Origin: Planctomycetota bacterium
GTDB taxonomy: Bacteria > Planctomycetota > Phycisphaerae > UBA1845
Length of the DNA stretch: 64,000 nucleotides
Assembly (NCBI GenBank): GCA_024275565.1
Contig: JAJRYY010000009.1
Coordinates: 6,756 to 70,755 of the forward strand
Direction of reading: 5' to 3'
Position 1 is the stretch's first letter. The number at the start of each line of letters is the position of its first letter. Shown piece after piece: positions 7,704 to 55,435 of the stretch. Below the pieces are notes generated by a model. That model searched no databases. It saw nothing but the letters and a program-made list of their open reading frames with translations, and was not told the DNA's origin. Made by a program: the position numbers and the translations under genes.

Positions 7704-10244
7704 ATGACGTGCAGATCGATACCGTCCCTTCTTCTCGTAGTCACCCTGCTGGGTCTCTATTCTGTGCCCGAGACGGACGCCGCCCAGGTGGTGCTACGGC
7801 CGTCGAAGGACAACACATTGTATGACGGCAACGGTGGCACTCGAAGCAATGGGGCAGGGCAACACGTTTTTTCGGGGAACAATAACAACCCCGCATTGCT
7901 TCCCCGACGGGCGGTGTTCTTCTTCGATGTGGCTGGCAATGTTCCTTCTGGAGCGACCATCAACAGCGTGGTACTCGAACTGAATGTCACGCGTGCCGGA
8001 TCGGGAACTCCGGCGATGAGTCTCCATCGCCTGAATACTGACTGGGGCGAATCTACGTCGCTTCCCAGCGGTGGTGCTGGTGGTGGAGGTGGAGGTGGAC
8101 CGGCTGCTACCGGTGATACGACATGGTTGCATACATTTTTCAACTCGTCGTTCTGGGCATCCCCTGGTGGTGATTTCAGCGGAGTGGTCAGCGGGAGTGC
8201 ATCAGTCGGCGGTGTCGGTTCATACACCTGGGGATCGACCGCGCAGATGGTGGCTGATGTTCAGGACTGGGTAGACAATCCCGCCGGTGAATTTGGGTGG
8301 ATTCTGATTGGTAACGAAGCAGTGACACAGTCTGCCAGGCGGTTTGCATCTCGCCAGAACAGCAATTCGAGTTTGCGGCCTTTGCTGACGATCGATTACA
8401 CAACTTCGGGGATCTCCGGTGCGTGCTGTGCAGGCGATGGAACTTGCACGAACCTCACGCCGCTCGCCTGCAGCAATAGCGGGGGAATCTATCAGGGCGA
8501 CAATGCACCCTGCTTTCCGAATCCCTGTGTTCCTGCCATTGGTGCGTGTTGCGAGAACAGTGGGGTATGCACGGACACAACGGATGCGGATTGCACGCTT
8601 CTGGGCGGCGTTTTTCAAGGCGTGGGCAATCTATGCTCCCCCGGCCTCTGCCCGGTGATCCTGGAACCCTACGTCGATGCTCTGCCGATTCCCGGCGTGT
8701 TGCAACCTGTCACGGGCACGTCTGGCGGGGTGGCTCATTATGTCGTCAACATGCTTGAGTTCGATCAGCAGCTTCATCGCGACCTGCCACCGACCCGGTT
8801 GTGGGGATATGAAGGTTTGTACCCCGGTCCTACGATCGAGGCGACGAGTGGTCAGCAGGTTACGGTGGAGTGGGTCAACGACCTCCGCGATGAGTTTGGG
8901 GTGTTGAGAACCGATCATCTGCTTCCAGTGAATCTCTGTGCGCATGGTCCGAATACCGAAGGCGACAATCCACGCACAGTGGTCCATCTTCACGGCGCTC
9001 ATGTTCAGGAGGAATACGATGGTTATCCTGAAAGCACCTTCCTGCCCGGCGAGAGTGATACTTACATCTACGAGAACAACCAGCTTCCTGCCACGTTGTG
9101 GTACCACGATCACGCGATCGGTATTACGCGACTGAACGTGCAACTCGGTCTTGCTGCATTCTACATCATTCGTGACGCGTTCGAGTTGAGTCTGGGTCTT
9201 CCGGATGGCGAGTTCGAGATTCCCATCGCGATTCAGGATCGCACGTTCAACCCCGATGGATCTCTCGTGTATCCCTTCGACCTGGGCGATTTCTTCTTTG
9301 GCGATACAATGGTGGTCAATGGAAAAGCCTGGCCATTCCTGAACGTCAAGCAGGGCAAATATCGCCTGCGATTGCTGAACGGTTGCAATGCCCGGACGCT
9401 GACGCTTGCGATGTCGTCGGGCGATCCTTTCGTGCGGATCGGTACGGACGGTGGATTGCTGCCCACACCGGTGACGGTGAGTGAAATCACGTTGTCACCG
9501 GCTGAGCGTGCGGATGTCATCATTGATTTCGCCGGGTTCGCACCGGGAACCGAAATCATCCTGACCAACAGCGCTCCTGCACCCTACCCCGGACTGGCTG
9601 GCGTCGGTGTGATTCCCGAAGTCATGAAGTTCATCGTGACGGCGGACCCTGGTGATACCGACCCGATCCCGACGAAACTGCGTCCGATGGAGGTGCTTCA
9701 GGAAGCAGACTCGGTCGTCACGCGTGATTTCGAGTTAAGCAAGGTGGCTGAACCCTGTGCCGGTGCAATGTGGACGATCAACGGTCTGATGTGGAACGAC
9801 ATCACCGAGTTCCCGGTTCTTGATACCACCGAGACGTGGCGGTTCATCAACAAGTCCGGCATGATGCACCCGATGCACATGCACCTTGTGATGTTCCAGG
9901 TACTGGACAGTCAGCCATTCATGATGGTTGGTGACGAGATTGTCACGACGGGTCCTCCCGTAGCACCCCCTCTGCATGAGCAGGGGTGGAAGGACACCGT
10001 GCGGGTCGATCCGTTTGAAATCGTGCGTGTGATCGCCCGGTTCGAGAGCTACACAGGGAAATATGCCTACCATTGCCACATCCTCGAACACGAGGACCAC
10101 GAGATGATGCGGCAGTTCCAGGTCGTTGCACCAGGTGATATTCCGACGATGTCTGAGTGGGGTATGCTGAACCTGGCCATCTGCCTGATGATCGCGGGAC
10201 AACTGATCTTCGCTCGACGAAGGCACAGTTCGATCGCGCGTTAA
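7704..10244 (+). CDS. secreted three-domain multicopper oxidase (CotA/bilirubin-oxidase-like) with N-terminal extension, two Cys-rich repeats and an IPTL-CTERM-like C-terminal sorting tail
   Basis: The four MCO copper-ligand motifs are present: HLHGAHV, WYHDHA, HPMHMH and HCHILEHEDHEMM. A signal peptide is predicted. Residues 230-320 carry two CxxC-rich modules (CCAGDGTCTNLTPLACSNSGG... and CCENSGVCTDTTDADCTLLGG...). The last 30 aa (IPTMSEWGMLNLAICLMIAGQLIFARRR) resemble the IPTL-CTERM motif followed by a TM segment and an Arg cluster. Confidence 0.8.
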   Translation: MTCRSIPSLLLVVTLLGLYSVPETDAAQVVLRPSKDNTLYDGNGGTRSNGAGQHVFSGNNNNPALLPRRAVFFFDVAGNVPSGATINSVVLELNVTRAGSGTPAMSLHRLNTDWGESTSLPSGGAGGGGGGGPAATGDTTWLHTFFNSSFWASPGGDFSGVVSGSASVGGVGSYTWGSTAQMVADVQDWVDNPAGEFGWILIGNEAVTQSARRFASRQNSNSSLRPLLTIDYTTSGISGACCAGDGTCTNLTPLACSNSGGIYQGDNAPCFPNPCVPAIGACCENSGVCTDTTDADCTLLGGVFQGVGNLCSPGLCPVILEPYVDALPIPGVLQPVTGTSGGVAHYVVNMLEFDQQLHRDLPPTRLWGYEGLYPGPTIEATSGQQVTVEWVNDLRDEFGVLRTDHLLPVNLCAHGPNTEGDNPRTVVHLHGAHVQEEYDGYPESTFLPGESDTYIYENNQLPATLWYHDHAIGITRLNVQLGLAAFYIIRDAFELSLGLPDGEFEIPIAIQDRTFNPDGSLVYPFDLGDFFFGDTMVVNGKAWPFLNVKQGKYRLRLLNGCNARTLTLAMSSGDPFVRIGTDGGLLPTPVTVSEITLSPAERADVIIDFAGFAPGTEIILTNSAPAPYPGLAGVGVIPEVMKFIVTADPGDTDPIPTKLRPMEVLQEADSVVTRDFELSKVAEPCAGAMWTINGLMWNDITEFPVLDTTETWRFINKSGMMHPMHMHLVMFQVLDSQPFMMVGDEIVTTGPPVAPPLHEQGWKDTVRVDPFEIVRVIARFESYTGKYAYHCHILEHEDHEMMRQFQVVAPGDIPTMSEWGMLNLAICLMIAGQLIFARRRHSSIAR

Positions 10245-10331: not shown

Positions 10332-11159
10332 CTATTTCCCGGTAAAGCTGATCTGGAACTGACCAAAGTCTGCAAAATCGATATCGACATCACCGTCGAA
10401 ATCGAATGCACAGGTACAGTCTTCTCCAGCAGGACCTGGCCCCGTCATGCAATCGAGAATGGCGGCTGCATCGAGGAGGTCTACATCACCGTCGCCGTCG
10501 AAATCACCCGATGGACCGGTGCATCCTTGCGCACCATTCAATACGACCCGGTCGAGACCGAAGACGCCAGCGGTCATGGTCGGAGGTCCGAGCAAAATGG
10601 GCGGTGTGTCGTGGCGGAAGAATACCGCATTCACGCCCTGAAGCACCTCATCAAATGTGGCAGACGGGGGATCTTCAAACCCGATGTACACGAAGTCGTC
10701 TGCCAGGAGGTCGACCGTGAATTCGGTCCAGTCCGTCCCGACGGGCAGGATGACCCCTTTGATGGCAGAATAGCGTGCGCCCTGACCGAACTGCCCATCT
10801 GCAAGCCCGAGATGGATTTCGAGATCGATGGCACCGAGGTTCTTCAACCAGAATGTCATCGAGGTTGCACCGACCGCAGGATAATCGCCGAGGAATGCGC
10901 TGTGGAGTTTTTTGTCCCGGGCGTGAATTCCGAGCGGGCCGGGGAGATCCGGCGTGCGAGACATCTGCAGAAAACCGTCACCATCGCCACCAACACCGCC
11001 GGTACCAGGGTTGGTTGAAGGTGTCTGGGCGAACCAGCCATTCGCGTCGCCACCGGAAAAATCCTCAACGACGCCCGTTTCGGCAGCCATCGCTCCCGCC
11101 GCCATGCCCATTGCCACCGTCATACACGCGAATACACCCGCGCTCATTTTCTTTCGCAT
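10332..11159 (-). CDS. secreted hypothetical protein with C-terminal double Ca-loop (dockerin/EF-hand-like) module
   Basis: An N-terminal signal peptide is present. The C-terminus reads DFDGDGDVDLLDAAAILDCMTG...CAFDFDGDVDIDFADFGQFQISFTGK. Confidence 0.5.
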   Translation of the reverse strand: MRKKMSAGVFACMTVAMGMAAGAMAAETGVVEDFSGGDANGWFAQTPSTNPGTGGVGGDGDGFLQMSRTPDLPGPLGIHARDKKLHSAFLGDYPAVGATSMTFWLKNLGAIDLEIHLGLADGQFGQGARYSAIKGVILPVGTDWTEFTVDLLADDFVYIGFEDPPSATFDEVLQGVNAVFFRHDTPPILLGPPTMTAGVFGLDRVVLNGAQGCTGPSGDFDGDGDVDLLDAAAILDCMTGPGPAGEDCTCAFDFDGDVDIDFADFGQFQISFTGK

Positions 11160-11398: not shown

Positions 11399-12751
11399 TC
11401 AGGATCGACCGTTTCGACCCAGTTTGACAGGGGTTGCCTCGAACTGCTCCTCCTCGGTTGATCCTGCCAGTGCGGTCGTTTCAGCCGCCCCGCCAGTGAC
11501 GAGAGTCTGGATTTTGTCGAAATATCCGGTTCCGACGAACCGCTGGTGCTTGGTGGCCTGGTATCCGAAATCTCGGTCGCTGTCGAATTCATGCTCCTGA
11601 AGTGAAGCGTAGGCGGTCATGCCCTCGTCGCGGTATTTTCTAGCCAGCTCGAACATGCCGAGATTAAGACAATGGAAGCCCGCCAGAGTGATGAACTGGA
11701 ATTTGTATCCCATCGCGCCCAGCTCTCGCTGGAACTTTGCGATCGTTGCGTCGTCGAGCTGGGCCTTCCAGTTGAAGGAGGGGGAACAGTTGTAGGCCAA
11801 CAGCTTTCCGGGATATTCGGCGTGGACTGCCTCGGCGAATCGCTTTGCCTCGCCCAGGTCGGGATGGGCAGTTTCGCACCAGATCATGTCGCAATGTGGG
11901 GCGTATGCGAGGCCTCGGGCGATGGCAGCGTCCATCCCGCCATTGAACCGGAAGAAACCCTCGCTTGTGCGCTCACCAGTGATGAATGGCCGGTCCCGCT
12001 CGTCTGTGTCGCAGGTGAGAAGCTTGCAACCATTGGTGTCGGTGCGTGCGACAAGGACAGTTGGAACGCCGCAGACATCGGCCGCCATCCGTGCCGCAAT
12101 AAGTTTCTGGATGAACTGGTCAGTGGGGACCGCCACTTTTCCGCCCATATGACCGCACTTTTTAGCGGACGATAACTGATCCTCAAAATGCACGCCGGCG
12201 GCGCCAGCTTCGATCATGAGTTTCATAAGCTCGTATGCGTTGAGGTTGCCACCGAACCCTGCTTCCGCGTCTGCGACGATCGGTGCGAACCAGTACTTAC
12301 CCGTCGGATCGTCGCTCATCTGATCCACCTGGTCGGCGCGCATGAGCGCTGCGTTGACCCTTTTAACAACATTTGGGACGCTATCGGAGGGGTAGAGACT
12401 CATGTCGGGATACATTTGACCCGCAAGGTTCGCGTCGGCGGCTACCTGCCAGCCGGACATATAGATTGCTTTCAGTCCGGCCTGGACCATCTGAACAGCC
12501 TGATTTCCGGTCAATGCTCCGAGTGCGTGGACATAATCCTCGGTATGCATGAGGCTCCAGAGGCGTTCTGATCCGAGTGTTGCGAGTGTGTGCTCGATTT
12601 TGACGCTGCCGCGAAGCTGGATGACATCCTCAGCCGTGTAGGGTCGTACAACGCCTGCCCAGCGCGGATCCTTCTTCCAATAATCCTGCATCTGCTGAAC
12701 AATGACGTCGCGGTTACCGTTGATAATCATATTTTTCTCCTCCGGGTTCAA
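11399..12751 (-). CDS. aceA: isocitrate lyase
   Basis: 450 aa containing the ICL signature KKCGHMGGK and the ICL/PEP-mutase fold. Confidence 0.9.
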
Positions 12752-12826
12752 TATCCCAGTCTTGGCTTCCTGTTGTTTAGCTTTCTATATTTGTAGTTTC
12801 CCAGTTTCAGCGTCCCAGTTTCAGAT

Positions 12827-14494
12827 TCACTTGTTTTGCAGCTTCCCCAATAGTTCGTATGCGGGGAGCGTTAGAAAATCGACGAGCGTTTCGTCGGTTG
12901 AAATGCGATCGAAGATGTCTGCGGCTTCGACGAAAGCACCCGCAGCGAAACGCTCTTCTCCGACCCCTTCTCTGATATGTTTCAGCTCATCGCGGAGCAT
13001 TGATTTGAAGAGTTCTTTCGTGATGACAACGCCATCTGTCTGCGCAACAGTTCCATCTGCCCGCTTGACATATCCATCAGACAGCTTTGCACGGTGGCGG
13101 ATCCATTGCCATATCTGTGTGCGTGAGATTTCAGCAGTGGCAGCGTCTTCCATAAGATGATAGAGCGGTACGCAGCCATTCCCGCGTAACCAGCTTTCCA
13201 GATATTGGACGCCGACACTGATATTGTGTCGAAGTCCTTTCTCCGTAATATTCCCACGCGGAACTTCGAGCAGATCGTTCGCCGTAACCATGACATCCCC
13301 GCGTGGCCGATCGATCTGATTCGGGCCTGGCATTTTTTCGTTGAATATATCCATTGCAGTCGATACCAGTCCGGGGTGCGCCACCCACGTCCCATCATGC
13401 CCTTCTTCAACTTCGCGTAATTTGTCTGCACGGACTTTGGCGATGGCTGCTTCGTTTGCCTTCGGATCAGATTTTATCGGAATCTGTGCAGCCATACCGC
13501 CCATGGCATGGGCACCTCGGCGGTGACATGTTTGAATGACATACCGTACATAGTTCCGCATCAATGGAACGGACATCGATATCTGGTCACGGTCCGGTAA
13601 TACAAATCTGGAATTATTTCGGAATGTTTTAACAAAACTGAAAATATAATCCCAACGTCCGCAATTCAGACCGGCTGAGTGGTCCCGAAGCTCGTACAGA
13701 ATTTCATCCGCTTCAAAGCTGGCCAGCACATGCTCAATGAGCACGGTTGCCTTGATCGATCCACGCGGGATGCCCAGTTCGTCCTGAGCGGTCTTGAAGA
13801 GGTCGTTCCAGAGTCGTGCTTCGAGGTGGTTCTGCAATTTCGGAAGATAATAATAGGGTCCAGAACCGTTATTGAGCAGCGTCCTGGCGTTGTGGAAGAA
13901 GTACAGCGCAAAATCGAAAATGCTACCGGAAACGGGTTGATTATCGACCCTGAGATGTTCCTCAACCAGATGCCAACCTCGCGGGCGGATCATGAGCGTC
14001 GCAGGATGATCGAAGAGTTTGTATTGCTTCCCTTCGGAGTTTGTGAATGCGATGGTGCGATTGACTGCATCACGCATGTTTATCTGCCCCTGGACCATGT
14101 TGTCCCAGGTTGGCGAATTGGAATCCTCAAAGTCTGCCATGAAACATTGCACGCCACTGTTGAGGGCATTGATGACCATTTTTCGATCGGTGGGTCCGGT
14201 AATCTCCACGCGTCGATCGCGCAGGTCATTCGGTATGGGCGCTATTTTCCATTTCGATTCCCGGATCCCCTCAGTCATTTCCAGAAAACCGGGCATATGC
14301 CCGGCGTCAATATCGCATTGGCGATCGATACGCTTGTTCAGGAGGTCGATGCGTGTTGCGTTATGGGACCGGTGGAGCGTCGCAATGAACGCGAGCGCCT
14401 CTGGTGTAAGGATTTCTGCGTATTCGGGCGTCACCAGCCCATTTATGGATATACCGTCCGTTACAACTGTCGCAATGCGCGCAACCATACTCAC
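12827..14494 (-). CDS. aceB: malate synthase A
   Basis: The 555-aa ORF has family-wide similarity, for example [29 protein letters not shown]. It lies immediately upstream of aceA on the same strand, giving the aceBA operon. Confidence 0.9.
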
Positions 14495-14655
14495 CCCTTT
14501 TTTCCAAAGGAAATATCGTTATCGGTGCATGTTCAATCGAGAAGTATGCCAGGAAACGACTCCATACATACTGCATTATGGGTCGTATTACTTTTCCCCT
14601 TTCCATCTCGTACGTATCATTCGTAGCGATTGAAGAATAATTAGGCAAACTAATA

Positions 14656-15642
14656 GTGCCAATGTATAGTATTGATAGAATCTATTATGGAAATTGGGGG
14701 CAGAACATCGTGGCGAAGCAGGTCCATCGCGCCTACTACAAGCAGAATCGATTGCAACAATTACGCGGATTCTGCTACGCAGCCAAGGCGCTCAGCATCT
14801 CGAAGGCAGCTCAGAAGATGTTTCTGAGTCAACCGTCCGTGTCTCTGCAGATCCAGGCGTTGGAGCGCGAGCTGGGGGTCGTGCTGTTTGAACGGTATGG
14901 ACCGAAAATATCGCTCACCCCCGATGGGGAAGCGTTGCTCGTCCTGGCGACCCCACTCGTGGAGGGGATGGACAACCTCCCTGCGTCCTTTGCAGCCCGT
15001 CGCGAGGAGATCGGCGAAGGCAGACTCGATGTCGCCGCTGGCGAATCGACCATCCTCTACATTCTCCCGGAACTTGTTCACGCTTTCAGCAAGCGTTACC
15101 CACGCATCGAACTGAAGCTCCACAATGTCACAGGTCAGACCGGGTTGAAAATGCTGCGGGCGGGTGAAGTTGATTTCGCTGTCGGGTCCATGATCGATAC
15201 GCATGATGACATCGTGTTTGCTGCGATCTGGACGTACGCACCAATGCTCATCACGCCGATGGACTGTCCGCTGGCGGATCGAAAGCGCGTGAGCATGAAA
15301 GACATCGCCGCAGAACCGCTTATTCTCCCGCCGCGACAGCTCACGACCTACCGACTGATCGAAGCAGCGATGGAGCAGCGAGGCCTAAACTACCATGTGC
15401 GGGTGGAGGCTGGAGGCTGGGAGGTGATTAAGAAGTATGTTCAGATCGGGCTGGGCGTGTCGATAGTCCCGAGCTTCTGCCTGACCGGCGATGAACCCGT
15501 CAGGTCGATTTCCGTCAAGGGACACTTCCCGGAACGGACCTACGGCGTGGTGCTTCGGAAAGGGAGATTTCTATCGCCACAGGCAAAGGAGTTCATTCGA
15601 AACCTCTCACCCTTGACGCATGACCTCGCGGAAATCGCGTAA
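14656..15642 (+). CDS. LysR-family transcriptional regulator, divergent from aceBA
   Basis: The N-terminal HTH (LRGFCYAAKALSISKAAQKMFLSQPSVSLQIQALERELGVVLFER) is followed by a LysR substrate-binding domain. The real start is probably downstream of the ORF-track start. Confidence 0.8.
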   Translation: MPMYSIDRIYYGNWGQNIVAKQVHRAYYKQNRLQQLRGFCYAAKALSISKAAQKMFLSQPSVSLQIQALERELGVVLFERYGPKISLTPDGEALLVLATPLVEGMDNLPASFAARREEIGEGRLDVAAGESTILYILPELVHAFSKRYPRIELKLHNVTGQTGLKMLRAGEVDFAVGSMIDTHDDIVFAAIWTYAPMLITPMDCPLADRKRVSMKDIAAEPLILPPRQLTTYRLIEAAMEQRGLNYHVRVEAGGWEVIKKYVQIGLGVSIVPSFCLTGDEPVRSISVKGHFPERTYGVVLRKGRFLSPQAKEFIRNLSPLTHDLAEIA

Positions 15643-17801: not shown

Positions 17802-18902
17802 TCAGCGGGGTCCTGTGTAGGCAGCACCGAATGACGCGAAATCTGAAAGGGTCGTCGCACCATCCCCGTCCGCATCGAACGGACGACAGTCTACCGATAC
17901 ATCGCCCCCCATGCACAACTGAAATATCGCAAAATCGCCGAAATCAATATCCCCGTCGTCATTCGCATCGCCATAAAGCGAAACGTCAGCCTGTTCCGCA
18001 ACATAGCCAGCCACCGACCGCAGCAGATCCTTCAGCATGTCGAAGTCAATGTAATCCGGGGAGACATCGATCGCGTCGTTTTGCGTATGGTAAAACCCGT
18101 TGCACAGATAACATCGCTCGATGACAACAAAAGCCGGTATCCCGACCGACTCGAACGACCAGTGATCCGAAAATGAAAAATTACCGAAATTCAAAAACGC
18201 CGACAGACCGTTTCCATAAGTGTCGATCGCCGTTGCGATACCATTTGCAGCAGCAGCGGACGCATTCTTGCTGTAAATATCCATCCCATAAGCACCGCTG
18301 TTATGCCCCACCATGTCAGTCGTCACAGCCAGCACGATATTCGCATCGGCGTGATCCGCAACAAACGCAACACTGCCCCGCTTGCCCTGCTCCTCACGAT
18401 CGAAGCAGACGAATTTGATCGTGCGCGCACTCCGCATCCCGGAAAACAACCGGGCCGTCTCCATAACCACAGCCGACCCCGATCCATTATCATCTGCTCC
18501 AGGATTGTTGGCCGAATCAAAATGTGCACCCACGACAATGATCTCGTCGGGATGCTCGTAGCCCGTCAGCGTCGCAACAACGTTGTGGTAGGTCGTCCCG
18601 TTATATTGGAAGGGGTCAAGCTCCGCATCGAAACCATACAGCATGAAATCCGCCAGAATATTGTCGCGGGCGAGGTCGTGCTCAGGACCAAATCCACGGT
18701 TGTCACCAAGGCGCGTATACAGCAGATCCTCCATGCAGTGTCGGTAATGACCAATATCGACCCGATCGGCAATCACTCCGGGAGGAGCTCCGGCATTGGC
18801 AGAAGTTGTGATGACCGAAAGAACGCAATGGGATGACACGATAAGAACTGAAAGACCCTGTCGATTACGGCCCTGTCGATTAATGCTCTGTCGAAAATTC
18901 AT
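17802..18902 (-). CDS. M28-family zinc aminopeptidase with C-terminal double Ca-loop module
   Basis: The M28 metal-binding block AHFDSANNPGADDNGSGSAVVMETARLFSG is present. A signal peptide starts at the internal Met (MNFRQ...). The C-terminus reads DANDDGDIDFGDFAIFQLCMGG...CRPFDADGDGATTLSDFASFGAAYTG. Confidence 0.75.
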   Translation of the reverse strand: MNFRQSINRQGRNRQGLSVLIVSSHCVLSVITTSANAGAPPGVIADRVDIGHYRHCMEDLLYTRLGDNRGFGPEHDLARDNILADFMLYGFDAELDPFQYNGTTYHNVVATLTGYEHPDEIIVVGAHFDSANNPGADDNGSGSAVVMETARLFSGMRSARTIKFVCFDREEQGKRGSVAFVADHADANIVLAVTTDMVGHNSGAYGMDIYSKNASAAAANGIATAIDTYGNGLSAFLNFGNFSFSDHWSFESVGIPAFVVIERCYLCNGFYHTQNDAIDVSPDYIDFDMLKDLLRSVAGYVAEQADVSLYGDANDDGDIDFGDFAIFQLCMGGDVSVDCRPFDADGDGATTLSDFASFGAAYTGPR

Positions 18903-19198: not shown

Positions 19199-19360
19199 GG
19201 GTGCCACTGGCGGCTTGCCCGCCAGTGCTTACGCAGGGTGCCGGGCCGTGTGGCCCACCTCTTCAGAGGTGGGGGAGCCGAAGATCAACCGAACATCCCC
19301 CAAGACCGCGTAAATCAATAGCAAAGCGCCGCGTGCCACTGGCGGCTTGTTCACCAGTGC
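19199..19360. repeat. cluster of REP-like palindromic elements (two copies of GGTGCCACTGGCGG-CTTGY-CCGCCAGTGC plus a second hairpin motif)
   Basis: Copy 1 at 19199-19229 is an inverted repeat CACTGGCGG/CCGCCAGTG. A second hairpin CACCTCTTCAGAGGTG-GGGGAGCCGAAGA lies at 19251-19295. A degenerate copy of the first element is at 19333-19360. Related copies occur at 27424-27462, 40485-40675 and 63840-63869. Confidence 0.6.
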
Positions 19361-19386
19361 TTTTCCAACAGCGAAGCATAAACACA

Positions 19387-20229
19387 TCACCCCCCAAACA
19401 CCCCCTGAAACCCCGCAAAATCAACAAGATCAACATCGCCATCACCATCCATATCCGCCCACCGACACCCCGGCCCAGCGTCGATACTGATCCCGCTGTT
19501 CCTGCTGCACTCTTCAAAGTACCGCCAGTCCCGAAGCCCAACCCCATCCGCACTATCGAAATCCCCACTGCCGTCCACAGCAATATCCCCATAACGAATG
19601 CAATCCCACCGGTTGAAGGCAGGCATTTGCCAAGACTTACCACGCCAAGTAATTCGGGGACCGTTGGATGGAAATGCGCCTTCAGCTATACCATTCGTAA
19701 CCAACTCTCCATCAATGTACCACCAGAAAAGATTGATCGGCCCGTTAACCAGTTCAAGACGATGAACATGCGGGACACCGGCCTCAAAATCAGCGAACAC
19801 AATTGGAAGCAGGTTGTCACGATTCAACTTTGCTCGATCGCGGGCGACAAAAAAAGTGTACCTGATCCCAAACGAGTTTCCGACAGCCATTGCGGTCGGA
19901 GCACCAGCTACAATTTCGGATGCATCTCCGTTCGCTTCGACCTTCCACTCCAGGAAAAAGGAAGGCCCCCCAACGAAATCGTCAAGTGTACGGCGATAAG
20001 AATCGTGTCCCCCTTGTTCTTTGCCAGGGCATTCAACCATATCAAGCTGCTGGATGTACTGTCCATCCTCAACCCAGAGAATGGGTACGCAAAATTGTTG
20101 CAACAACCCCCAACCCCCCGCAACAGGAAAGGAATCACATTCCCAGGTGAACACCTCCCCGCGCGCAATCGCCGCCGAAATCAGCACACATCCTGCCATC
20201 ACTGCCTTGCTTACCATTGCTCTCAACAT
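19387..20229 (-). CDS. secreted hypothetical protein with C-terminal Ca-loop module
   Basis: 280 aa with a signal peptide. It ends ...CRWADMDGDGDVDLVDFAGFQGVFGG. Confidence 0.5.
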   Translation of the reverse strand: MLRAMVSKAVMAGCVLISAAIARGEVFTWECDSFPVAGGWGLLQQFCVPILWVEDGQYIQQLDMVECPGKEQGGHDSYRRTLDDFVGGPSFFLEWKVEANGDASEIVAGAPTAMAVGNSFGIRYTFFVARDRAKLNRDNLLPIVFADFEAGVPHVHRLELVNGPINLFWWYIDGELVTNGIAEGAFPSNGPRITWRGKSWQMPAFNRWDCIRYGDIAVDGSGDFDSADGVGLRDWRYFEECSRNSGISIDAGPGCRWADMDGDGDVDLVDFAGFQGVFGG

Positions 20230-20409
20230 ACCATCTCACACCTGCACATCGATTCACACCAACACACGTTCCAACCAGCACTATAGAAAATCCAGCACCG
20301 TAAAAGATACCCAATGACATCAGATTCCCACGATCAGCCGCCAACAAACACCGGCAACCACTGGCTAACAAAGAGCTTACGAATATCTTACTTTTTCCTA
20401 ACTTTTTAC

Positions 20410-20924: not shown

Positions 20925-22670
20925 TTGAGTCAAAAAGTCAAGCGGCAAGGAGCGACGATGTCTTCAGTTTATCGGAATATGTACGTTTTTGTGTGTATGG
21001 TGTCGATGTTGAGCGGGGCGGGTTCCGCCATGGGGCAGCAGTTCGTTGAGAGTACGAATGCACGCCTGCCAGCCGCTTCCCCACTGGAATACTCCGAGCA
21101 GGTGGACATGGCCGACATCGATGGCGATGGCGATATGGACATGCTCTTCGCCAACGGCCGCGGGTTCAGCAGCCCACAACAGCAGCAGCGCAACCGCCTC
21201 TATATCAACGATGGCAACGGATTCTTCGTCGATGAAACGTCGCTGCGCTTACCGACCACCCTTCTGGGATACACGCGGGACGTCGAATTCGGCGATGTGG
21301 ACGGCGATGGCGATATGGACCTCCTCATCGTCAACACGTTCAACACGCAATCCTGGTTGTTGATCAACGACGGATCTGGCTTCTTCACCCACGACTCCGC
21401 CGCACTGCCGACCTCCAGTTTCAGCGGTTCAGACGGCGATTTCGGCGATGTGGACAACGATGGCGATCTGGACATCATCTTCACGAACTCCGGAACATCA
21501 GCCTTCGGAACCGGCATTGACAAGCTGTACATCAACGATGGAACGGGGTTGTTTTCGGACGAAACCGGTACGAGGCTTCCGGGCGTGGGCGTCGCGCAGA
21601 GCATTGATTGCGATTTTGCGGATATCGACGGCGACCTCGATCTGGACCTGATTATGGGACATCGCGACGGTCGATCTCAGCTTTGGCGAAACGACGGAGC
21701 CGGTTTCTATACCGACATCACCCTCAGCAACCTCCCCAACGATGGCAGCGGAACATATTCAGTGGACCCGGGCGATATCGATGGCGATGGCGATCTGGAC
21801 CTGATGGTCGTTCGCGGCAGTACGGATCGGGCATTCCGCAACGATGGTACGGGTGATTTTTTCAATGTGACTGCGGCTGTCCTGCCGAGCAACCCATTTC
21901 AGGATGACAACGACGGCGACTTTTTCGACCTCGATAACGATGGCGACCTCGACTACATCATCGCCCGCCTCGGCAGCGGTGGCGAGCGGGTGTATGTCAA
22001 CAACAACGGCGTCCTGCAACTGACCCCGGGCATGATTACAGTGATATCGGACTCAACGCTGGACGTGGAAATCGGCGACCTCAACAACGATGGTCGCCTG
22101 GATGTTGTGACCGCCCAGGGCGAATCCGGAAGCTTCAGAAACCGCATCTACATGAGCAGTGGCCCCATCGACACGCTCGCACCCGTGACAGCCCAACTGG
22201 ACGATCTAGCGGATACGGACGATTCGACTGGTCCCTATGTGGTGCGGGCAGCGATCCGCGACGGGATGACGGGCGATAACAATTTCCACGATCGCGGCAT
22301 CCAACTGCTTTACAGCGTTGGAAACGGATCGCCCCAGACCGTCCCGATGGTCTGGTCCGGCGGCGACCTCTATCGCGGCGAAATTCCAGGACTGGCCGCT
22401 GGTTCCATGGTCGCCTACTCCGTCATGGCCATGGACTGGGCTGGCAACCTTGGCATTTCCTCTGAGATGACATTCGCGGTCACGGGCGGAATCCTCGGCG
22501 ATGGCGACGGCGACGGCGATGTCGATTTGAGTGATCTGGGCAGCTATTTCGACTGCGTCGGCACCTCACTGGTGGGGGGCGACAGTTGTGCTTCGTTCGA
22601 TTTCGACGGCAACCAGAACGTGGATTTCGCCGATTTTGGATCCCTCCAGCAAGCCTTCACCGGCAGTTAG
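20925..22670 (+). CDS. secreted FG-GAP/VCBS-repeat beta-propeller protein with C-terminal Ca-loop module
   Basis: Seven repeats of the form DIDGDGDMDMLFAN / GDVDGDGDMDLLIVN / GDVDNDGDLDIIFTN and so on. The C-terminus reads GDGDGDGDVDLSDLGSYFDCVG...CASFDFDGNQNVDFADFGSLQQAFTGS. Confidence 0.75.
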   Translation: MSQKVKRQGATMSSVYRNMYVFVCMVSMLSGAGSAMGQQFVESTNARLPAASPLEYSEQVDMADIDGDGDMDMLFANGRGFSSPQQQQRNRLYINDGNGFFVDETSLRLPTTLLGYTRDVEFGDVDGDGDMDLLIVNTFNTQSWLLINDGSGFFTHDSAALPTSSFSGSDGDFGDVDNDGDLDIIFTNSGTSAFGTGIDKLYINDGTGLFSDETGTRLPGVGVAQSIDCDFADIDGDLDLDLIMGHRDGRSQLWRNDGAGFYTDITLSNLPNDGSGTYSVDPGDIDGDGDLDLMVVRGSTDRAFRNDGTGDFFNVTAAVLPSNPFQDDNDGDFFDLDNDGDLDYIIARLGSGGERVYVNNNGVLQLTPGMITVISDSTLDVEIGDLNNDGRLDVVTAQGESGSFRNRIYMSSGPIDTLAPVTAQLDDLADTDDSTGPYVVRAAIRDGMTGDNNFHDRGIQLLYSVGNGSPQTVPMVWSGGDLYRGEIPGLAAGSMVAYSVMAMDWAGNLGISSEMTFAVTGGILGDGDGDGDVDLSDLGSYFDCVGTSLVGGDSCASFDFDGNQNVDFADFGSLQQAFTGS

Positions 22671-33139: not shown

Positions 33140-33391
33140 ATGTGCGATGCCATCCAGCAACACTTCAAGCAGCCTTGAGTTACTCCAAACAGCCTTGAAT
33201 TCGTACCGGATTATGCTAAAGTAGTGCTTCAGATTTCATCTGATGGGGAAAACCTGCCCCAGAACGCACGTTGTCGCATTTCGAATTTGTCAACGCTCAG
33301 GTTTCGCGAGCGGCGGGGTGATTGTTCATCTCAGAAGCATTGGTCGCAGGTGAAAAGCAAAATTTACTCAGACAGGAAAGGAGTCCTACTT

Positions 33392-36300
33392 ATGCACAGG
33401 ACGCTCTGTGGAACCGTTGTAATGTTGGCTGCCATACTCACCGGTGACGTGCTACTCGCACAATTCCAGGCCGGTCCGGTTTTACCAATCCTCGGCCCCA
33501 TCAGGCAGGGAGGTTTTGAATGGCCTGATCAGGGTAACGATTTTGCGTACACGCCGGGAGGATCGTTTTGGGCATTCACTGGCGGAACCGGACTGGCCGG
33601 CAACGGCAGTGGGTTCACACGTTTCAATCCCCCCGCACCCCAGGGAGACCAGGTCTGCTTCATACAGAATGCTTCGAACAGCACAGTGAGTCAGAAATTC
33701 ATATACCCCGCTGGCCGATACAGATTCAGGGTCAAAGCTGCCCAGCGCCTGCGAGGCAACGGAAATCTTGACCAGCAAACTATCAGCTTGCGGATCGATG
33801 GCACGGAAATACTCAGCATCACCCCGCCCGATGAAAACTACACCCAGTACATCACCGATTATATTCTGCTGGACAGCTCGTCCCACGTGCTCACGTTTGT
33901 CGGCATGCAGAACGGTGGAAACTCCGCTTTTATCGACCAGGCGCAGGTTCAGTCCCTCAACGCAACCGCAGACAACTGGTCGGACCCAGGCACATGGCAG
34001 AATGGGGTCGTACCCGGTCCAACCGTGGATGCCACGATTCCCCTCGGCCAGACGGTTCTGCTGGATACTGACGCAAATGTCAAATCACTGACGGTCTTGG
34101 GATCGCTGTATTGCAAAGACGACGACGTATCCATCACAGCAAACTTCATCAATGTCTCAGGCTGGTTCGAATGTGGATCGGAAACAAGTCCACATCTTCA
34201 AAATATGACCATGACACTCAACGCGCCCCACAATCACCCTCCATGCACTCCGCCTGAAACTCCGAACTGTGAACAGACCACCTGCGATACCCGATGCGAT
34301 GGAACCTTTGAACCGTCGACGAAACACCTCATGGCCATACAAGGTGGAACCATCGAACTCCACGGCGAACCGCGTCTCAGCTGGACACAGATAAGCGCCA
34401 CAGCAGCCGTCGGTGACACATCGATTACCGTCATTGACCCGGTCGACTGGCGCATCGGTGATCAGATTGTCATTGCACCCACTTCAGAGAATACCAACGA
34501 AGGAGAAGAAGTCACCATTACCAACGTCAGCAACAACGGGCTGACCATAGATTTCACCCCAGGACTGCAATTCGAACATTACGGAGAACAGACCACATAC
34601 AACAACGGGGTGACTTCCTGGGTTCTCGATGAACGCGCGGAAGTGGGCCTGCTGACACGCAACATCGTGCTGAAGGCTGCCGAAGGAACAACTTCAGACG
34701 GTTACGGTGCACACATGATGACCATGAATGGTGCATTCTCCCGTGTCTCGGGCGTTGAGTTTTATCAGGTAGGCCAGGCAGGTCATCTCGCCCGATACCC
34801 CTTCCACTGGCACCTCGCAGGCGATGCCACCGGACAATACATCAGAAACTGCTCAATTCACAACAGTTACCACCGATGCGTCACCCTTCATGGAACCAAC
34901 AACGCGGACATATCGGACAACGTATGTTACGATATCCTGGGACATGCCTACTTCATCGAAAATGGCACTGAAGTCGACAACACATTCGATCACAACCTGG
35001 GAATCCTGACCAGAAAGGTACCGAAAGTAGATGCGGTACTCGAATCCGATTATCGCAATGGCTCTGCATCCAATGGTCCAGCCACCTTCTGGATTCGTCA
35101 CCCGGACAACATCTACACGAACAATGCAGCCGCCGGTTCTGAGGGTTCGGGCTACTGGTACGGCATGCTTCAGGGCGATGACTCACTATTTGCCCAGTTC
35201 GGGAAGTTTGAAAACAACCGTGTCCACTCATCTCGGCAGGGGTATACAGCCTGCAGCAACCCAAGCGGTCCACACGGAATGAATCCACCAACACCGGCGG
35301 TTCTCCAGGGACTCACCGTCTCCAACTGCAAACAGGGGGTTTGGCCATGTGCAGCCAGCCAGACAGCAGAAAAGTCGATCTTCAAGAACATGATCGTCGC
35401 AAACTGCGAGAATGGATTTCAGGCACCCAATCCGGTCGCTCTGGAAGACTCGCTGTTTGTCGGGTATTCGAACAATGCCCCGCAGGCAGCCGAACTCGGT
35501 AGCAACTCAAACTGGCGAGGCGTTCAGGTATACGATCAGGGGTTCCTTTTCACCAATATACACTTTGAAAACTACGATCGCCCGTTCATGACGGCCTTCT
35601 TCCCAGGCGGAGGGGCCCACAAACATGCAAATAACCGCGCCATAGGCCTGACATTCAACAATGCCCCCAATGTATTCCTTGACCCAAACAACTTCTGGAA
35701 GATCGGCAACGTCCCCGGATGGTGGGGAGACGTGATACACGATCTCGACGGAAGTCTGGTAGGCGATGACTGGGCCTTCGTGGCAGGCCATCCCGTCATG
35801 TTCGATCGAACATGCACTCAGCCAACCAACATGAACACCGACGGATACGCATGCCCCTATCGCTATGCCCATTTCCGAAGCGAACACTTCGCCTCCATCG
35901 ATCCGATCACCGTGATTCGGTCCGACGGCTATAGCAACACAAGTGGTCATATCAATGCCCGTTTCATCACGGAAATCATCATGGATGACTCTTACTTCTA
36001 CACATACCGCTACTCCACAGGGCTGAAGTTCAAAAAGCTTCAAGTCTCACTGCGGAACGCCTTCGGCGGCGACAACGCGGTGTACGAGTTCCTGGACGTC
36101 CCGTCGACCTTCAGCATTCCAACCAGCGGTTGGCAGCAGGCTTCTTCAGTGGACGATCTCATGACAGGCGCGGGACACCGATATGTCTGGCGAGACCATT
36201 CGCTGTTCCTTAAGATGCAAGCCAGCGGTGATGACTGGCATGCGACCGACATAGTCGACATTTGCCTGAGAGACGTCAATTGTGCACTAACGCATGAGGT

Positions 36301-40400: not shown

Positions 40401-40484
40401 CACAACAACCTCCTGGAAAGAACAATTCATCGACAGGGCGACCATGTCTTCCTAACAACAGGGCGCCCATATCTTCTTCAACAG

Positions 40485-42242: not shown

Positions 42243-42265
42243 GTTCCATGTGTACTGATAACCAT

Positions 42266-42282
42266 AAGCACCCTGCGTGCCA
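42266..42282 (-). promoter_or_regulatory. sigma-54 (-24/-12) promoter for rtcBA
   Basis: The minus strand reads TGGCACGcaggGTGCT, with a perfect -24 TGGCACG and correct spacing to a GC at -12. It lies 25-40 bp upstream of the rtcB start and next to the divergent rtcR. Confidence 0.5.
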
Positions 42283-44201: not shown

Positions 44202-45515
44202 TCAGGGGCAGCCTGCGCCCATTCCCGTGAAGACTGATTGAAATGCGCTGTAATCGTCGAGGTCGACATCGCTGTCGGCATCGGCGTCAAAACATGCACA
44301 CTCTGGGGGCAATGCAGCACCGGTCGTGTCAAAACAGGCCTGGAACAAGGCGAAATCGGAGATATCGACATCACAATCGGCATCGATATCCTGCGGTGGA
44401 TCGTTACAACCCGATTCGCAATCGTCGGCTATACCGTTGGAGTTGTCGTCTGCACAATCTGTTTCAAACCCGGCCCATGCGCTGTTGGGGATGATGCTGC
44501 AATCCGCATCGGTCAATATAAGACAGTTTCCATTGCTGAGGCAACACGCGCCTTGGGGTTGTGGGCAGATCACGTCATCACAGACACTGTCATTCCCCTG
44601 AAATACACCGCCCGCAGCTTCACATACATCCGGCGGAACCTCCTCCACACACTGACCTGCCGGCATGCAACACGCACCGGCTGCGAAGCACTCTATCGCA
44701 TCGCAGGTCGTCCCCACACCCTGTCGAAATCCTTTGGCGGCGATGCAGTTTTCCGCCGTCAGATCGAGACAACCACCGGAGAGAAAACAGCACGCCTCCA
44801 TGGGGTCCGGGCAGTCTATGATACCGCAATCTGTGTTGTTGCCCTGGTAGACCCCGCCAAGCCCGACACACAAACCGCTCGAAACACCATCCTGACACTC
44901 GCCGGTCGGAAGACAGCACCCCCCCATCGGAGCAGCACAATCGACCACCGCACGAATCGCTACATCGCCCTGAAGAAAAGTGCAAAAATTGATCCACCCC
45001 CCCTGAAACGGAGCGAACAACGCATTGCGCCCGCCTTGGCAACCATCTGTATCTCGCAGGATGCTGGGTGTTCCAGCCAGGATGTTCGTCGCATTCCCGA
45101 ACTCCAGCGACACAACAAACACTTCACCCTCACTGACGGAGATTGCAAATGGCGTCCCTGCCTTGTCGATGCTGCGGAACTCGTTGAGGCTTCCCGGTGT
45201 GAGGACCGGACCTTCGAGCTGCAACAGGACCGCTCCTGGGTCGGGAAATGCGCCCTGCGCATAGACCCACATGTTCTCCTCTAATGTGGGGATGGCTGCT
45301 GCGTCTGCTGAAAACCATAAAATCTGGAGTGCAACGATATCCCCATCACAGGGAGAGGTCAGCCAGGCAGCGACCTGCTCACTGGCATCGAAATCGCCGA
45401 CAAGCACCGCCTGCCCGAAATCCACGATCGAATCGTTCAGGACGACCTGCTCCTGTGCGTGGGCCAGTGCAGCAGACATCGCCAACACAAGAAACCCGTT
45501 GAATGTGTTTCTCAT
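44202..45515 (-). CDS. secreted Cys-rich repeat protein with C-terminal double Ca-loop module
   Basis: A signal peptide is present. There are four or more repeats of the form ACC(L/F)xxGxCxxxxxxxCxxxGGVYQGNxxxCxxxxCP, as also seen in the MCO N-terminus. The C-terminus reads DIDADCDVDISDFALFQACFD...CACFDADADSDVDLDDYSAFQSVFTG. Confidence 0.6.
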   Translation of the reverse strand: MRNTFNGFLVLAMSAALAHAQEQVVLNDSIVDFGQAVLVGDFDASEQVAAWLTSPCDGDIVALQILWFSADAAAIPTLEENMWVYAQGAFPDPGAVLLQLEGPVLTPGSLNEFRSIDKAGTPFAISVSEGEVFVVSLEFGNATNILAGTPSILRDTDGCQGGRNALFAPFQGGWINFCTFLQGDVAIRAVVDCAAPMGGCCLPTGECQDGVSSGLCVGLGGVYQGNNTDCGIIDCPDPMEACCFLSGGCLDLTAENCIAAKGFRQGVGTTCDAIECFAAGACCMPAGQCVEEVPPDVCEAAGGVFQGNDSVCDDVICPQPQGACCLSNGNCLILTDADCSIIPNSAWAGFETDCADDNSNGIADDCESGCNDPPQDIDADCDVDISDFALFQACFDTTGAALPPECACFDADADSDVDLDDYSAFQSVFTGMGAGCP

Positions 45516-51730: not shown

Positions 51731-51814
51731 AATTGGCGACGATTGGTGTTCAGAGACGCTTTGCAATGTCCGATAAACCAAAATGACAATATCGCAGACT
51801 ATCGGGAGCGACTC

Positions 51815-52612: not shown

Positions 52613-55435
52613 TTATGGGCGCGGTGACATGGATTGCCCGCTCCAGGACTGCGTTGCATTGCCGGTCCCGGAGAGTTCCTGACGGATGCGGAGCAGGTCG
52701 AGCGCCTGAATGACCCCGTTCCTGTCCATGTCGATGTAGTCAAGATCCTCGCCTTCTGGATTCTGGAATACCCCATTGAACATCTGACGGAAACGTAGCA
52801 GATCCAACGCCTGAACCACGCCGGACTGATCTATATCGCATGGCAGGAAACCAATGTCGATGCGATCCGGTTCATTCACGCCAGGCCCCTGATCGCCGCT
52901 GGAAGCAATCGGGTTGCCAGCAAGATCCTCGACGTCTGCTACGATGGTGGTCCAGAAACCTGCTGGAACCGGGCCAGACAATTCGACCTGTACCAGCGTA
53001 TTGTCTGCACTCAATATGCTGATCACCGATGGGTAGGATGGAGCGTCACCCATGAGTGTGAAGGCGCTGGTTGATAATGTTGCGTCTTCAGCCCCTGCGT
53101 CTCGTACCTGTTCTGAGAACAATATTGACAGTGTATCCACGCCCATATCGAACGCCTCACCATCGGAGCTTTCCATGCGAGAATCGACATATCCGCTATG
53201 CGGGAAGGTCGTGGTGCCGGCGTCGTGGACAATCTCCGGCGAGACAGTGTCCATGTCTTCACATACGAACACTTTCACGATGAAATCGTCGATGGCTGCT
53301 TCCGTCAGCGATACGGTCAGCACATCCGCCACCGAGAAACGAACCCGCATGCTGGCTGTCGGGGTCACAAAATCAGAGACATTGAACGACACGACTTCCC
53401 AGCCGCCATCACCGCCGGGTCCGACCGTTTCCAGATTGAACCAGTTCACGCCTCCGTCATTGGAAATTTCGACTTCGAGCGTATCGTTGTCGTTGTTGTT
53501 ATCGAACCATCGAGCGTACTCAATTGTCCCCTCCATGCCCTCCAGATCAAAAATCGGCGACGTCAGAATTACCGGCCCGCCATCGACATCGCAAGTGCCC
53601 GCCTGACCAGCACAATTCCCCGTCACGAAGCAGATCGTACCATCCTCAGAATAGTCGTCTTCCGGCTGAGCGGTGGTACCAATAGGATCCTCGCGAACCC
53701 ACTGCCCCGTCGTGTTCACCCCCTCGAAGGTTGATTCCCATCCGCCATCAAGCTCGAAATCATCTTCAAATCGAATCTCCAACGCGCCGACCTCCGCAAA
53801 GTATGTTTCGTCTGGCGCATTGAACGGACTGGTGACCACCGACTCCTCTGTCGAGGTCGCTGTAAAATAGAATTCCGGAACAGAATCACAGGTAGCCGCA
53901 GGCAGCGTTGCCTCATACTCATTGCCACCCAACGCCAGCATGGCAACCTGATCGAACGCTCCTCCGTCAAAACGATATACCAGCATGGGACTGCCAGGAT
54001 CAAGCTCTTCCGATCCCATGCTGATTTGCACGCGTATCGTGGTCGTTTCTCCGGGAACGATGGAACCCGGCAGTCCGTCGGGGAAGGCGTATCGCAGTGG
54101 TTGAATGGTCGCGAGTACAGCATCCAGTGTCGCTTTTGCATCGATGCGCCCTGCACCGAACATATTGTCAAAACCAGGATCGCCGAGATCCACAGCATTG
54201 TTTCTGAGGAACTGCCTGACCTCCTCCACCTGGATGTTCGGATTTAACGAGTACATCAATCCGACCAGCCCTGCGACGTGCGGCGTCGCCATCGATGTAC
54301 CGGTCTCATAGTTGTAATCTGCCGGCCCCCCGATCCATGTCGAAAAGACTGCTATCCCCGGGGCACAGACATCCATCCACGGACCTCGGTTTGAGGCTGT
54401 GTAATAAATGTCATTCTCGCCCGTGGCGGATACCGCGATGGTTTGAGGATAGGCGGCTGGAAAATAGGAGATGTTGCTACCATCGTTGCCAGCGGCTGCT
54501 ACGACCGTGACATCGTTGTCCCATGCATACTGAACGGCGGTCTGCAGGATACCCGCCCCACCACCACCGCCACCACTATAATTGACGATGTGTGCTCCAT
54601 TGTCCGTCGCGTAGGTAATCGCCTCTGCAATCGCTTCCCATGTCCCGGAAAGTCCGTTGAATACCTGCAGGGGCATGATCGTACAGTTGCTCATGCCCGC
54701 AATTCCTGCAGCATTGTTGATCTGGGCACCTGCAATGCCGGCCACATGCGTACCATGTCCGGAGGTCGGTGACGGATCGTTGTCCGAATTCATAAAATCC
54801 CAACCGATCGTGTCATCAATGAATCCGTTGCCGTCGTTGTCCAACCCGTCCGGCGGGTCGTCCACATTGACCCATAATCCACTCTGAAACTCTACATGGT
54901 CGAGTCGAAGCCCACTGTCTGCTATCGCAATGATAATCGCCGGATCACCCGTGGTGATGTCCCACGCTTCTTCAGCACGGATAATCATGGGTCCGTATTG
55001 CTCGGCCTCAAAAAAAGGATCGTTCGGTGTAAAGGCTGCACGGGTGATATAATTCGGGACGGCGTATGTGACGCCAGACAGCTTCGAGATTCGCTCAACC
55101 GCCTGCGCAACATCACTGCCGGGAGCGAGGTGAACCACCCGGACCATAGCCAGCGGATGGACCTGCTTGGGCTTGTTTTTCGCGTGCGGTGCGTGACGAA
55201 GCTCGTGCCAGCGCTCAGCGTCTGGTACGCACGCCTGAATACACTTCATCTCCCGTTCGCCGGGAACGTTCCGATAACCCACGATCAGCTGATCGGGTAC
55301 ATATGCCAGATCGATCTCTTTGACCGCAACAGGTTCTTTCGTCCTGGTAATGCCAAAGTCGTCGCCCACGCCCCATACAGCGTGATTATCCCCCGCCATT
55401 CCAATGAACAGGATCAAGCCAACAAGTCGCTTCAT
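52613..55435 (-). CDS. secreted subtilisin-like (S8) serine protease with C-terminal type-I dockerin
   Basis: The catalytic triad blocks are present: IADSG (Asp), GHGTHVAG (His) and GTSMATPHVAG (Ser). The C-terminal dockerin duplicate reads DIDQSGVVQALDLLRFRQ...DMDRNGVIQALDLLRIRQ. Confidence 0.85.
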   Translation of the reverse strand: MKRLVGLILFIGMAGDNHAVWGVGDDFGITRTKEPVAVKEIDLAYVPDQLIVGYRNVPGEREMKCIQACVPDAERWHELRHAPHAKNKPKQVHPLAMVRVVHLAPGSDVAQAVERISKLSGVTYAVPNYITRAAFTPNDPFFEAEQYGPMIIRAEEAWDITTGDPAIIIAIADSGLRLDHVEFQSGLWVNVDDPPDGLDNDGNGFIDDTIGWDFMNSDNDPSPTSGHGTHVAGIAGAQINNAAGIAGMSNCTIMPLQVFNGLSGTWEAIAEAITYATDNGAHIVNYSGGGGGGAGILQTAVQYAWDNDVTVVAAAGNDGSNISYFPAAYPQTIAVSATGENDIYYTASNRGPWMDVCAPGIAVFSTWIGGPADYNYETGTSMATPHVAGLVGLMYSLNPNIQVEEVRQFLRNNAVDLGDPGFDNMFGAGRIDAKATLDAVLATIQPLRYAFPDGLPGSIVPGETTTIRVQISMGSEELDPGSPMLVYRFDGGAFDQVAMLALGGNEYEATLPAATCDSVPEFYFTATSTEESVVTSPFNAPDETYFAEVGALEIRFEDDFELDGGWESTFEGVNTTGQWVREDPIGTTAQPEDDYSEDGTICFVTGNCAGQAGTCDVDGGPVILTSPIFDLEGMEGTIEYARWFDNNNDNDTLEVEISNDGGVNWFNLETVGPGGDGGWEVVSFNVSDFVTPTASMRVRFSVADVLTVSLTEAAIDDFIVKVFVCEDMDTVSPEIVHDAGTTTFPHSGYVDSRMESSDGEAFDMGVDTLSILFSEQVRDAGAEDATLSTSAFTLMGDAPSYPSVISILSADNTLVQVELSGPVPAGFWTTIVADVEDLAGNPIASSGDQGPGVNEPDRIDIGFLPCDIDQSGVVQALDLLRFRQMFNGVFQNPEGEDLDYIDMDRNGVIQALDLLRIRQELSGTGNATQSWSGQSMSPRP

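Follow-up and report, generated by a model that had tools for sequence, protein, structure and literature searches.

The Phycisphaerae are abundant polymer degraders with few cultured members, and little is known about how their enzymes stay on the cell surface. In its planctosome passages, one study (Andrei et al. 2019, PMC6461901) proposed a cohesin/dockerin 'planctosome' with peptidases for freshwater Phycisphaerae; as presented there, the model is built on cohesin and dockerin domains that Pfam recognises within a single family, the Nemodlikiaceae. Intramolecular clasps stabilise dockerins and their binding to cohesins (PMC3821032). A Cys-flanked form is modelled in NCBIfam as NF041540 ('GC-type dockerin domain-anchored protein'), and a literature text search returned no paper under the name 'GC-type dockerin'. 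The PEP-CTERM, IPTL-CTERM and T9SS domains are recognised by processing enzymes or secretion machines; they take the form of a transmembrane helix plus basic tail or of a beta-sandwich C-terminal domain.

The window analyzed here is a stretch of 64,000 nucleotides from a planctomycete of the class Phycisphaerae (assembly GCA_024275565.1, contig JAJRYY010000009.1, positions 6,756 to 70,755). A profile HMM derived from five C-terminal tails was compared with the six-frame, stop-to-stop segments of this window. It identified a common module of ~57 aa at the C-termini of exactly five ORFs (Table 1), with scores of 72-89 bits and E-values of 1.6e-21 to 1.1e-26; the best non-member segment of the window reached an E-value of 2.7. 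The same HMM gave at most 9.8 bits for the seven FG-GAP Ca loops of ORF 20925-22670 and, in the window scan, no match to the dockerin of the S8 protease (ORF 52613-55435). This clean separation from the Asp-rich FG-GAP loops and from the S8 tail indicates that the module is real and specific rather than a by-product of composition. The five ORFs that a first-pass annotation had named as sharing a tail are real, all end in the module, and are exactly those returned by the HMM. The interval 10332-10520 that it had singled out covers the module of ORF 10332-11159 (10335-10508) plus its stop codon.

Table 1. Coordinates of the five C-terminal modules and of the comparator dockerin in the window.
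Feature	Length	Position	Strand	Location	Module HMM (bits)
Predicted Cys-dockerin module	58 aa	10335..10508	-	C-terminus of ORF 10332-11159	77.9
Predicted Cys-dockerin module	56 aa	17805..17972	-	C-terminus of M28 peptidase ORF 17802-18902	74.9
Predicted Cys-dockerin module	59 aa	19390..19566	-	C-terminus of ORF 19387-20229	86.6
Predicted Cys-dockerin module	57 aa	22497..22667	+	C-terminus of FG-GAP/VCBS propeller ORF 20925-22670	
Predicted Cys-dockerin module	63 aa including GAGCP end	44205..44393	-	C-terminus of Cys-rich-repeat ORF 44202-45515	89.1
Canonical Cys-less dockerin type I (comparator, not of the subfamily)		52673..52837	-	Near C-terminus of S8 protease ORF 52613-55435	

The module is carried by mutually unrelated passengers, namely an M28 peptidase, an FG-GAP propeller, a Cys-rich repeat protein and two proteins without a Pfam domain. 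All five carriers have Sec-type hydrophobic, signal-peptide-like N-termini, as read by eye. ORF 10332-11159 (275 aa) has a signal peptide and a 'choice-of-anchor'-like N-domain. ORF 19387-20229 (280 aa) has no known domain, and its homologue P0014 has an identical architecture. The peptidase assignment of ORF 17802-18902, the longest version of which extends to 19019, is based on a Pfam match of the whole protein (Peptidase_M28, 1.7e-34), and the enzyme is 52-58% identical to proteins named Phycisphaerae or Planctomycetota. This identity and the taxonomic range of the module point to Planctomycetota, probably Phycisphaerae, as the lineage of the window; in a blastn comparison of the window with retrieved genomic loci, the only match was a UbiA gene of 67% identity in a Phycisphaerae metagenome-assembled genome. 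An alternative longer start of ORF 44202-45515 lies at 45605.

Several other genes of the window are mentioned for orientation. A glyoxylate-shunt pair lies between the first and second carriers (11399-15642 region); by reading of the translations only, it comprises an isocitrate-lyase-like ORF (11399-12751) and a malate-synthase-like ORF (12827-14494), accompanied by a divergent LysR-like ORF (14656-15642). An RNA-repair operon with the RtcR sigma-54 activator (42379-43986, plus strand) and the RNA 3'-phosphate cyclase RtcA (39384-40445, minus strand) is unrelated to the module. The longest opposite-strand ORFs at 42163-43809 and 19201-20286 are shadow ORFs. A secreted protein of 1,381 aa (33224-37369, plus strand) combines G8, CEMIP beta-helix and Big_7 domains and has no recognisable C-terminal tag.

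The module consists of two F-hand repeats, in each of which Asp occupies loop positions 1, 3, 5, 9 and 12 (D1-x-D3-x-D5-G-D-V-D9-L-x-D12) and a helix F-A-x-F-Q follows the loop. Across 338 modules, the loop Asp residues occur at frequencies of 0.80-1.00 in both repeats. The duplicated F-hand and helix are seen in all five window tails, with a degenerate first repeat in ORF 19387-20229 (GDFDSADGVGLRDWRYFEEC) and a first repeat without FxxFQ in ORF 10332-11159. Apart from these two deviations in repeat 1, the consensus initially proposed is correct (D-x-D-G-D-G-D-V-D-L-x-D-F-A-x-F-Q-x-C...C-x-x-F-D-x-D-x-D-x-D-V-D-L-x-D-F-x-x-F-Q-x-x-F-T-G).

Current models recognise the module partly or miss it entirely. 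The gathering threshold of Pfam Dockerin_1 (PF00404), 22.9 bits, is passed by two of the five isolated tails (ORF 10332-11159, 26.7 bits; M28 peptidase, 23.0 bits) and failed by the other three, one of which scores 9.9 bits and two of which give no match; the whole M28 protein scores 19.0 bits. ORF 19387-20229 has no Dockerin_1 match in Pfam scans of either the whole protein or the isolated tail, and ORF 44202-45515, scanned in the same two forms, has no Pfam or NCBIfam match. The S8 protease reaches 32.7 bits as a whole protein and 37.7 bits as an isolated tail, in agreement with the first-pass annotation, which had set it apart as carrying a different, canonical dockerin.

Profile and structure comparisons also point to dockerins. 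A family profile of 108 tails matches the double dockerin 8x39 in the PDB (E 3.8e-10) as well as the dockerins 5nrm, 5lxv and 2vn5 (3e-5 to 2e-4). An AlphaFold2 model of the ORF 20925-22670 tail, based on the alignment of 108 sequences, has a pLDDT of 89.8 and a pTM of 0.77, with helices at residues 16-25 and 49-57. In Foldseek searches with this model, dockerins gave TM scores of 0.6-0.71 versus 0.23-0.34 for calmodulins. As firmly as a prediction allows, the module has the dockerin fold. The initial description of a dockerin- or EF-hand-type duplicate is thus borne out by the two F-hands, the PDB matches and the modelled structure. It was also right to separate the module from the standard Dockerin_1 domain: the tails match that model clearly worse than the S8 tail does, and positions specific to the family exist.

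Three other kinds of repeat or signal were considered and rejected. For a calmodulin-like EF-hand pair, the isolated tails fall far below the thresholds of PF13499 and related Pfam models, and the Foldseek scores for calmodulins are low. Thrombospondin type 3 repeats are discounted because helices come after the loops and the fold matches are dockerins. An RTX/T1SS signal is discounted because the carriers have Sec signal peptides and the GGxGxD nonapeptide is absent.

A pair of Cys residues brackets the linker between the two repeats, one after helix 1 (F-Q-x-C) and one four residues before loop 2, usually with 11-12 residues between them. Each Cys is present in 97% of 338 near-complete modules, an overestimate, as Cys is rewarded by the search HMM. 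Both Cys are found in 324 of these modules, neither in 6 and a single one in 8 (Fisher p 2e-8). Since this set had been retrieved with a Cys-containing profile, the count was repeated on tails of M28 homologues retrieved by their catalytic domain; here both Cys are present in 46, neither in 5 and a single one in none. Such joint presence and joint loss suggest a disulfide, and the pair most likely forms one that staples the inter-repeat linker. The Cys pair and the DFAxFQ helix are the family-specific positions of the module.

Even at E<=10, the five tails have no match to an NCBIfam model. NF041540 (cut-off 29 bits) was found neither in the tails at E<=10 nor in the whole carriers at E<=0.1, and P0292 likewise has no match to it. 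The model does match sister tails on M28 homologues, with 32.5 (P0364), 28.3 (P0362), 24.2 and 15.9 bits. An hhalign comparison of the module family with these GC/WGPC-type tails gave a probability of 97.3% (E 1.8e-11), which indicates that the two are homologous; comparison with the S8 dockerin kept the register and was weak (10%, E 0.0032). On sequence grounds, we assign the module to a previously unmodelled, putatively Cys-stapled 'FQ-type' dockerin branch that is sister to the GC type and abundant in Phycisphaerae. The novelty initially attached to the module was overstated. The Cys subtype is indeed distinct, but Dockerin_1 is found in 69 of the 101 best-scoring family members (E<=1e-3), some members already appear in GenBank and JGI as 'dockerin type I repeat-containing protein [Phycisphaerae bacterium]' or 'Dockerin type I domain', NF041540 describes a sister type, and a planctosome had been proposed. 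The M28 homologues P0290-P0314 have a sub-variant whose second loop and helix contain an additional Cys (FDRDxDGDVDCADWPAFRxAY) and in which ~55 more residues follow the module; this suggests further diversification within the family.

The module is common among secreted proteins of one lineage. When 1.84 billion representative proteins were searched exhaustively with the profile, 13,827 matched at E<=1e-3, of which 1,353 reached E<=1e-10. In addition, a degenerate pattern for D-V-D-L-x-D-F-x-x-F-Q-x-C was scanned against the DNA of one genome per GTDB species, with at least 119 matching loci. Among the matches listed, all are from Phycisphaerae, Phycisphaerales, Planctomycetota or unnamed 'bacterium' metagenome-assembled genomes, and several loci per genome are common; the subfamily is thus found only in Phycisphaerae/Planctomycetota genomes among these matches. 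The module lies within 20 aa of the stop codon in 116 of the 122 module ORFs listed (95%), so the C-terminal position observed in the window extends to other genomes. Among the listed matches, 115 passenger regions are 80 aa or longer, and these form 45 similarity clusters.

Exceptions to the single C-terminal copy are found among the best-scoring 150 family proteins, a set biased toward multi-copy arrays, some members of which have 2-6 modules, odd repeat numbers or N-terminal arrays. This tandem and N-terminal occurrence indicates that the module is a portable folded domain and no obligate terminal signal. Arrays of two or three modules stand at the N-termini of P0017, P0021, P0051 and P0055; in P0017 an FGE-sulfatase domain follows the array, and other N-terminal arrays precede sequence resembling an RHS repeat-associated core (…PPSGTFxLHGRPVDVLSDGH…RYYDP…). 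The odd F-hand number of several proteins reflects one module plus a single extra repeat.

Homologous passengers carry different C-terminal domains in the same place. Among 120 M28 homologues, 52 have the module. The catalytic domain also occurs with a PEP-CTERM tail (TIGR02595, 23.3 bits versus a cut-off of 16), with a GC-type dockerin (the NF041540 match above its cut-off), with IPTL-CTERM on record (precomputed PF18203; TIGR04174 16.6 bits, below the cut-off of 20.5), or without a tail. Likewise, homologues of the N-domain of ORF 10332-11159 end in a T9SS sorting domain (TIGR04183, 23.2 versus 23), a PEP-CTERM-like tail or a TWGRIKxLYR end. The last of these is conserved as TWGRIK[SR]LYR at the extreme C-terminus of P0005 and P0007 and may be another C-terminal tag.

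A similar pattern exists within the window. The Cys-rich repeat of ~37 aa, present in four copies in ORF 44202-45515, recurs in two copies in a multicopper oxidase (ORF 7704-10244; BLASTP 1e-9) that ends in the IPTL-CTERM sequence DIPTMSEWGMLNLAICLMIAGQLIFARRR (TIGR04174, 21.1 bits versus 20.5). This oxidase, encoded on the plus strand, has 846 aa and an N-terminal DNRLRE domain. A choice-of-anchor E domain protein at 58323-59042 (plus strand; NF033208, 92.9 bits) has the PEP-CTERM-like tail VPEPGLATLVGLGGGVLLRRRRR, with the terminus VPEP...RRRRR. Judged by the tails of the window, C-terminal tags of at least four kinds are thus in use in this genome, namely PEP-CTERM, IPTL-CTERM, the canonical dockerin and the Cys-dockerin. 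From this 'choice-of-anchor' pattern on homologous passengers we argue that the module serves retention at the cell surface. The first-pass annotation had proposed a shared anchoring or sorting partner for the common tag. The anchoring role is plausible, because known anchoring signals occupy this position on homologous passengers, but a sortase- or exosortase-like partner finds no support.

We consider it probable, at roughly 0.7, that the module is a dockerin-fold Ca2+ domain that holds Sec-exported proteins non-covalently on a common cell-surface partner. Unrelated passengers fused to the C-terminal module would be exported via Sec, the disulfide would stabilise the module outside the cell, and the module would then dock its carrier onto the common surface partner in a Ca2+-dependent, non-covalent manner. 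It would accordingly act as a docking or retention domain and not as a cleaved sorting signal. Such docking is the most likely mechanism given the predicted dockerin fold. The observations made here concern the module itself, its homology, its predicted fold, its bias toward the C-terminus, the lineages in which it occurs and the way it alternates with known anchors. From them we infer that it binds Ca2+, forms the disulfide and docks, and that a partner exists, which may be cohesin-like or of another kind.

The most serious rival, although an unlikely one, is a dockerin-fold Ca2+ domain without a dedicated protein receptor, which may act as a Ca2+-dependent cap for folding or stability, bind acidic surface or extracellular polysaccharide through Ca2+ bridges, or self-associate. 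It remains serious because no partner was found. Pfam scans of 37 window ORFs revealed no cohesin or other candidate receptor, as the first-pass annotation had stated for the window, and eight further ORFs, scanned against NCBIfam only, contained no receptor either. Neighbourhoods of two other carriers (P0251 and P0008) likewise contain no cohesin or receptor, and Cohesin is absent from the 25 most frequent Pfam families in the 101 best-scoring carriers. Many non-cellulosomal dockerins reportedly lack recognisable cohesins, and a locus of exopolysaccharide and PEP-CTERM type (PrsT-like TPR protein, EpsI-like protein, priming glycosyl-phosphate transferase) is present in the window. The N-terminal arrays and odd repeat numbers described above are unusual for classical dockerins and also count against docking, as do the three tails below the Dockerin_1 threshold and the lack of any NF041540 match in the five; the tandem and N-terminal arrays speak for the rival. 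On the other hand, all structurally related solved domains are dockerins that bind cohesins, and conservation is symmetrical between the two helices, a feature of dockerins that can bind in either orientation. The module also replaces bona fide anchoring signals in orthologues, which argues for a role in localization rather than mere stability.

A reading in which a sortase- or exosortase-like enzyme recognises and cleaves the tail as a new type of C-terminal sorting signal is very improbable. The strong C-terminal bias is what such a signal would show, homologues have PEP-CTERM, IPTL-CTERM and T9SS signals in the same position, and exosortase-associated genes (EpsI-like, PrsT-like) are present in the window. 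However, the module is acidic and is confidently predicted to be a globular dockerin, with neither a hydrophobic transmembrane segment nor a basic tail. The five tails have no match to TIGR02595, TIGR04174 or TIGR04183, no hydrophobic stretch and no Arg/Lys end. These properties exclude a signal of this type in practice. Occurrence in 2-6 tandem copies and at N-termini also conflicts with a cleaved signal, the genuine signals of the window (IPTL-CTERM of ORF 7704-10244, PEP-CTERM of ORF 58323-59042) are entirely different, and the window showed no gene for a sortase or exosortase. The suggestion of a novel sortase- or exosortase-like system was therefore abandoned.

The neighbourhood at 45924-52513 and 56997-60860 is of the exopolysaccharide/PEP-CTERM type. 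It encodes a PrsT-like TPR protein of 1,501 aa (TIGR02917, 263.6 bits, below the cut-off of 312) and an EpsI-like protein (50556-51350) with a match to the C-terminal portion of XrtD. A NeuD-type acetyltransferase, a sugar-1-phosphate nucleotidyltransferase and an exopolysaccharide priming glycosyl-phosphate transferase are also encoded there. The EpsI-like and PrsT-like genes (45.9-51.4 kb) belong to the PEP-CTERM/IPTL-CTERM-type system and not to that of the module.

A chance or low-complexity resemblance of Asp-rich tails, for example to FG-GAP or EF-hand loops, is refuted and of negligible probability: the tails are indeed rich in Asp and Gly and in isolation give weak Pfam EF-hand and FG-GAP_3 matches, but their E-values (1e-21 to 1e-26) are cleanly separated from the next match, the seven FG-GAP loops of ORF 20925-22670 score far lower, the family numbers 1,353 representative proteins at E<=1e-10, and conservation extends beyond the loops to Cys, Phe and Gln positions.

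The module marks many secreted proteins: its matches at E<=1e-10 amount to 1,353 representative clusters, carriers make up about a tenth of the ~48 window ORFs, and other metagenome-assembled genomes have several copies each. A dedicated HMM would improve annotation and provide a list of probable surface proteins. The conserved tag would also offer a handle for the receptor and a means to test whether non-cellulosomal dockerins need cohesins. This is an incremental advance and not a new principle. More speculatively, and in our view improbably, the FQ-type stapled dockerin might form a Phycisphaerae-wide surface display without a classical cohesin, with either a protein of novel fold or exopolysaccharide made by the cell itself as its receptor. 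If true, thousands of secreted proteins would be docked through this tag, and planctomycetes would have a third general way of surface retention beside exosortase and T9SS-type sorting.

Compared with dockerin type I (PF00404), known from clostridial cellulosomal enzymes and from non-cellulosomal dockerins, the module shares two F-hands of ~22 residues, with Asp or Asn at positions 1, 3, 5, 9 and 12 and a helix after each. Both are C-terminal on signal-peptide-bearing enzymes, peptidases included. Canonical dockerins have no Cys pair bracketing the inter-repeat linker, and in profile alignments the PDB dockerins have other residues at the Cys columns of the module. Its helices read F-A-x-F-Q in place of the canonical L/I-x-x-L/M-K/R, its loop ligands are all Asp, and its arrays may be tandem, odd-numbered or N-terminal, with no cohesin partner found. 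In common with the planctosome as described in the passages cited above (PMC6461901), dockerin-tagged peptidases (here M28 and S8) occur in the same class, and a Ca2+-dependent surface assembly is proposed. Unlike in that model, no cohesin is seen here and most carriers are not peptidases; a Cys-stapled subtype is not described in the planctosome passages (PMC6461901).

The GC-type dockerin and the module are both Cys-flanked double F-hands at the C-termini of secreted proteins of the Planctomycetota type, and both take the same position on M28 peptidase homologues. The GC-type helix reads L-L-x-L-L-x-x-W-G-x-C (W-G-P-C) or F-L-x-F-Q-N-x-F-x-x-G-C, with a terminal Cys, whereas the window module has F-A-x-F-Q-x-C...F-Q-x-x-F-T-G and a last repeat without a terminal Cys. 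With the PEP-CTERM, IPTL-CTERM and T9SS domains, finally, the module shares the extreme C-terminal place and is interchangeable on homologous passengers; unlike these signals, it is predicted to be a soluble, acidic, Ca2+-binding alpha-helical domain.
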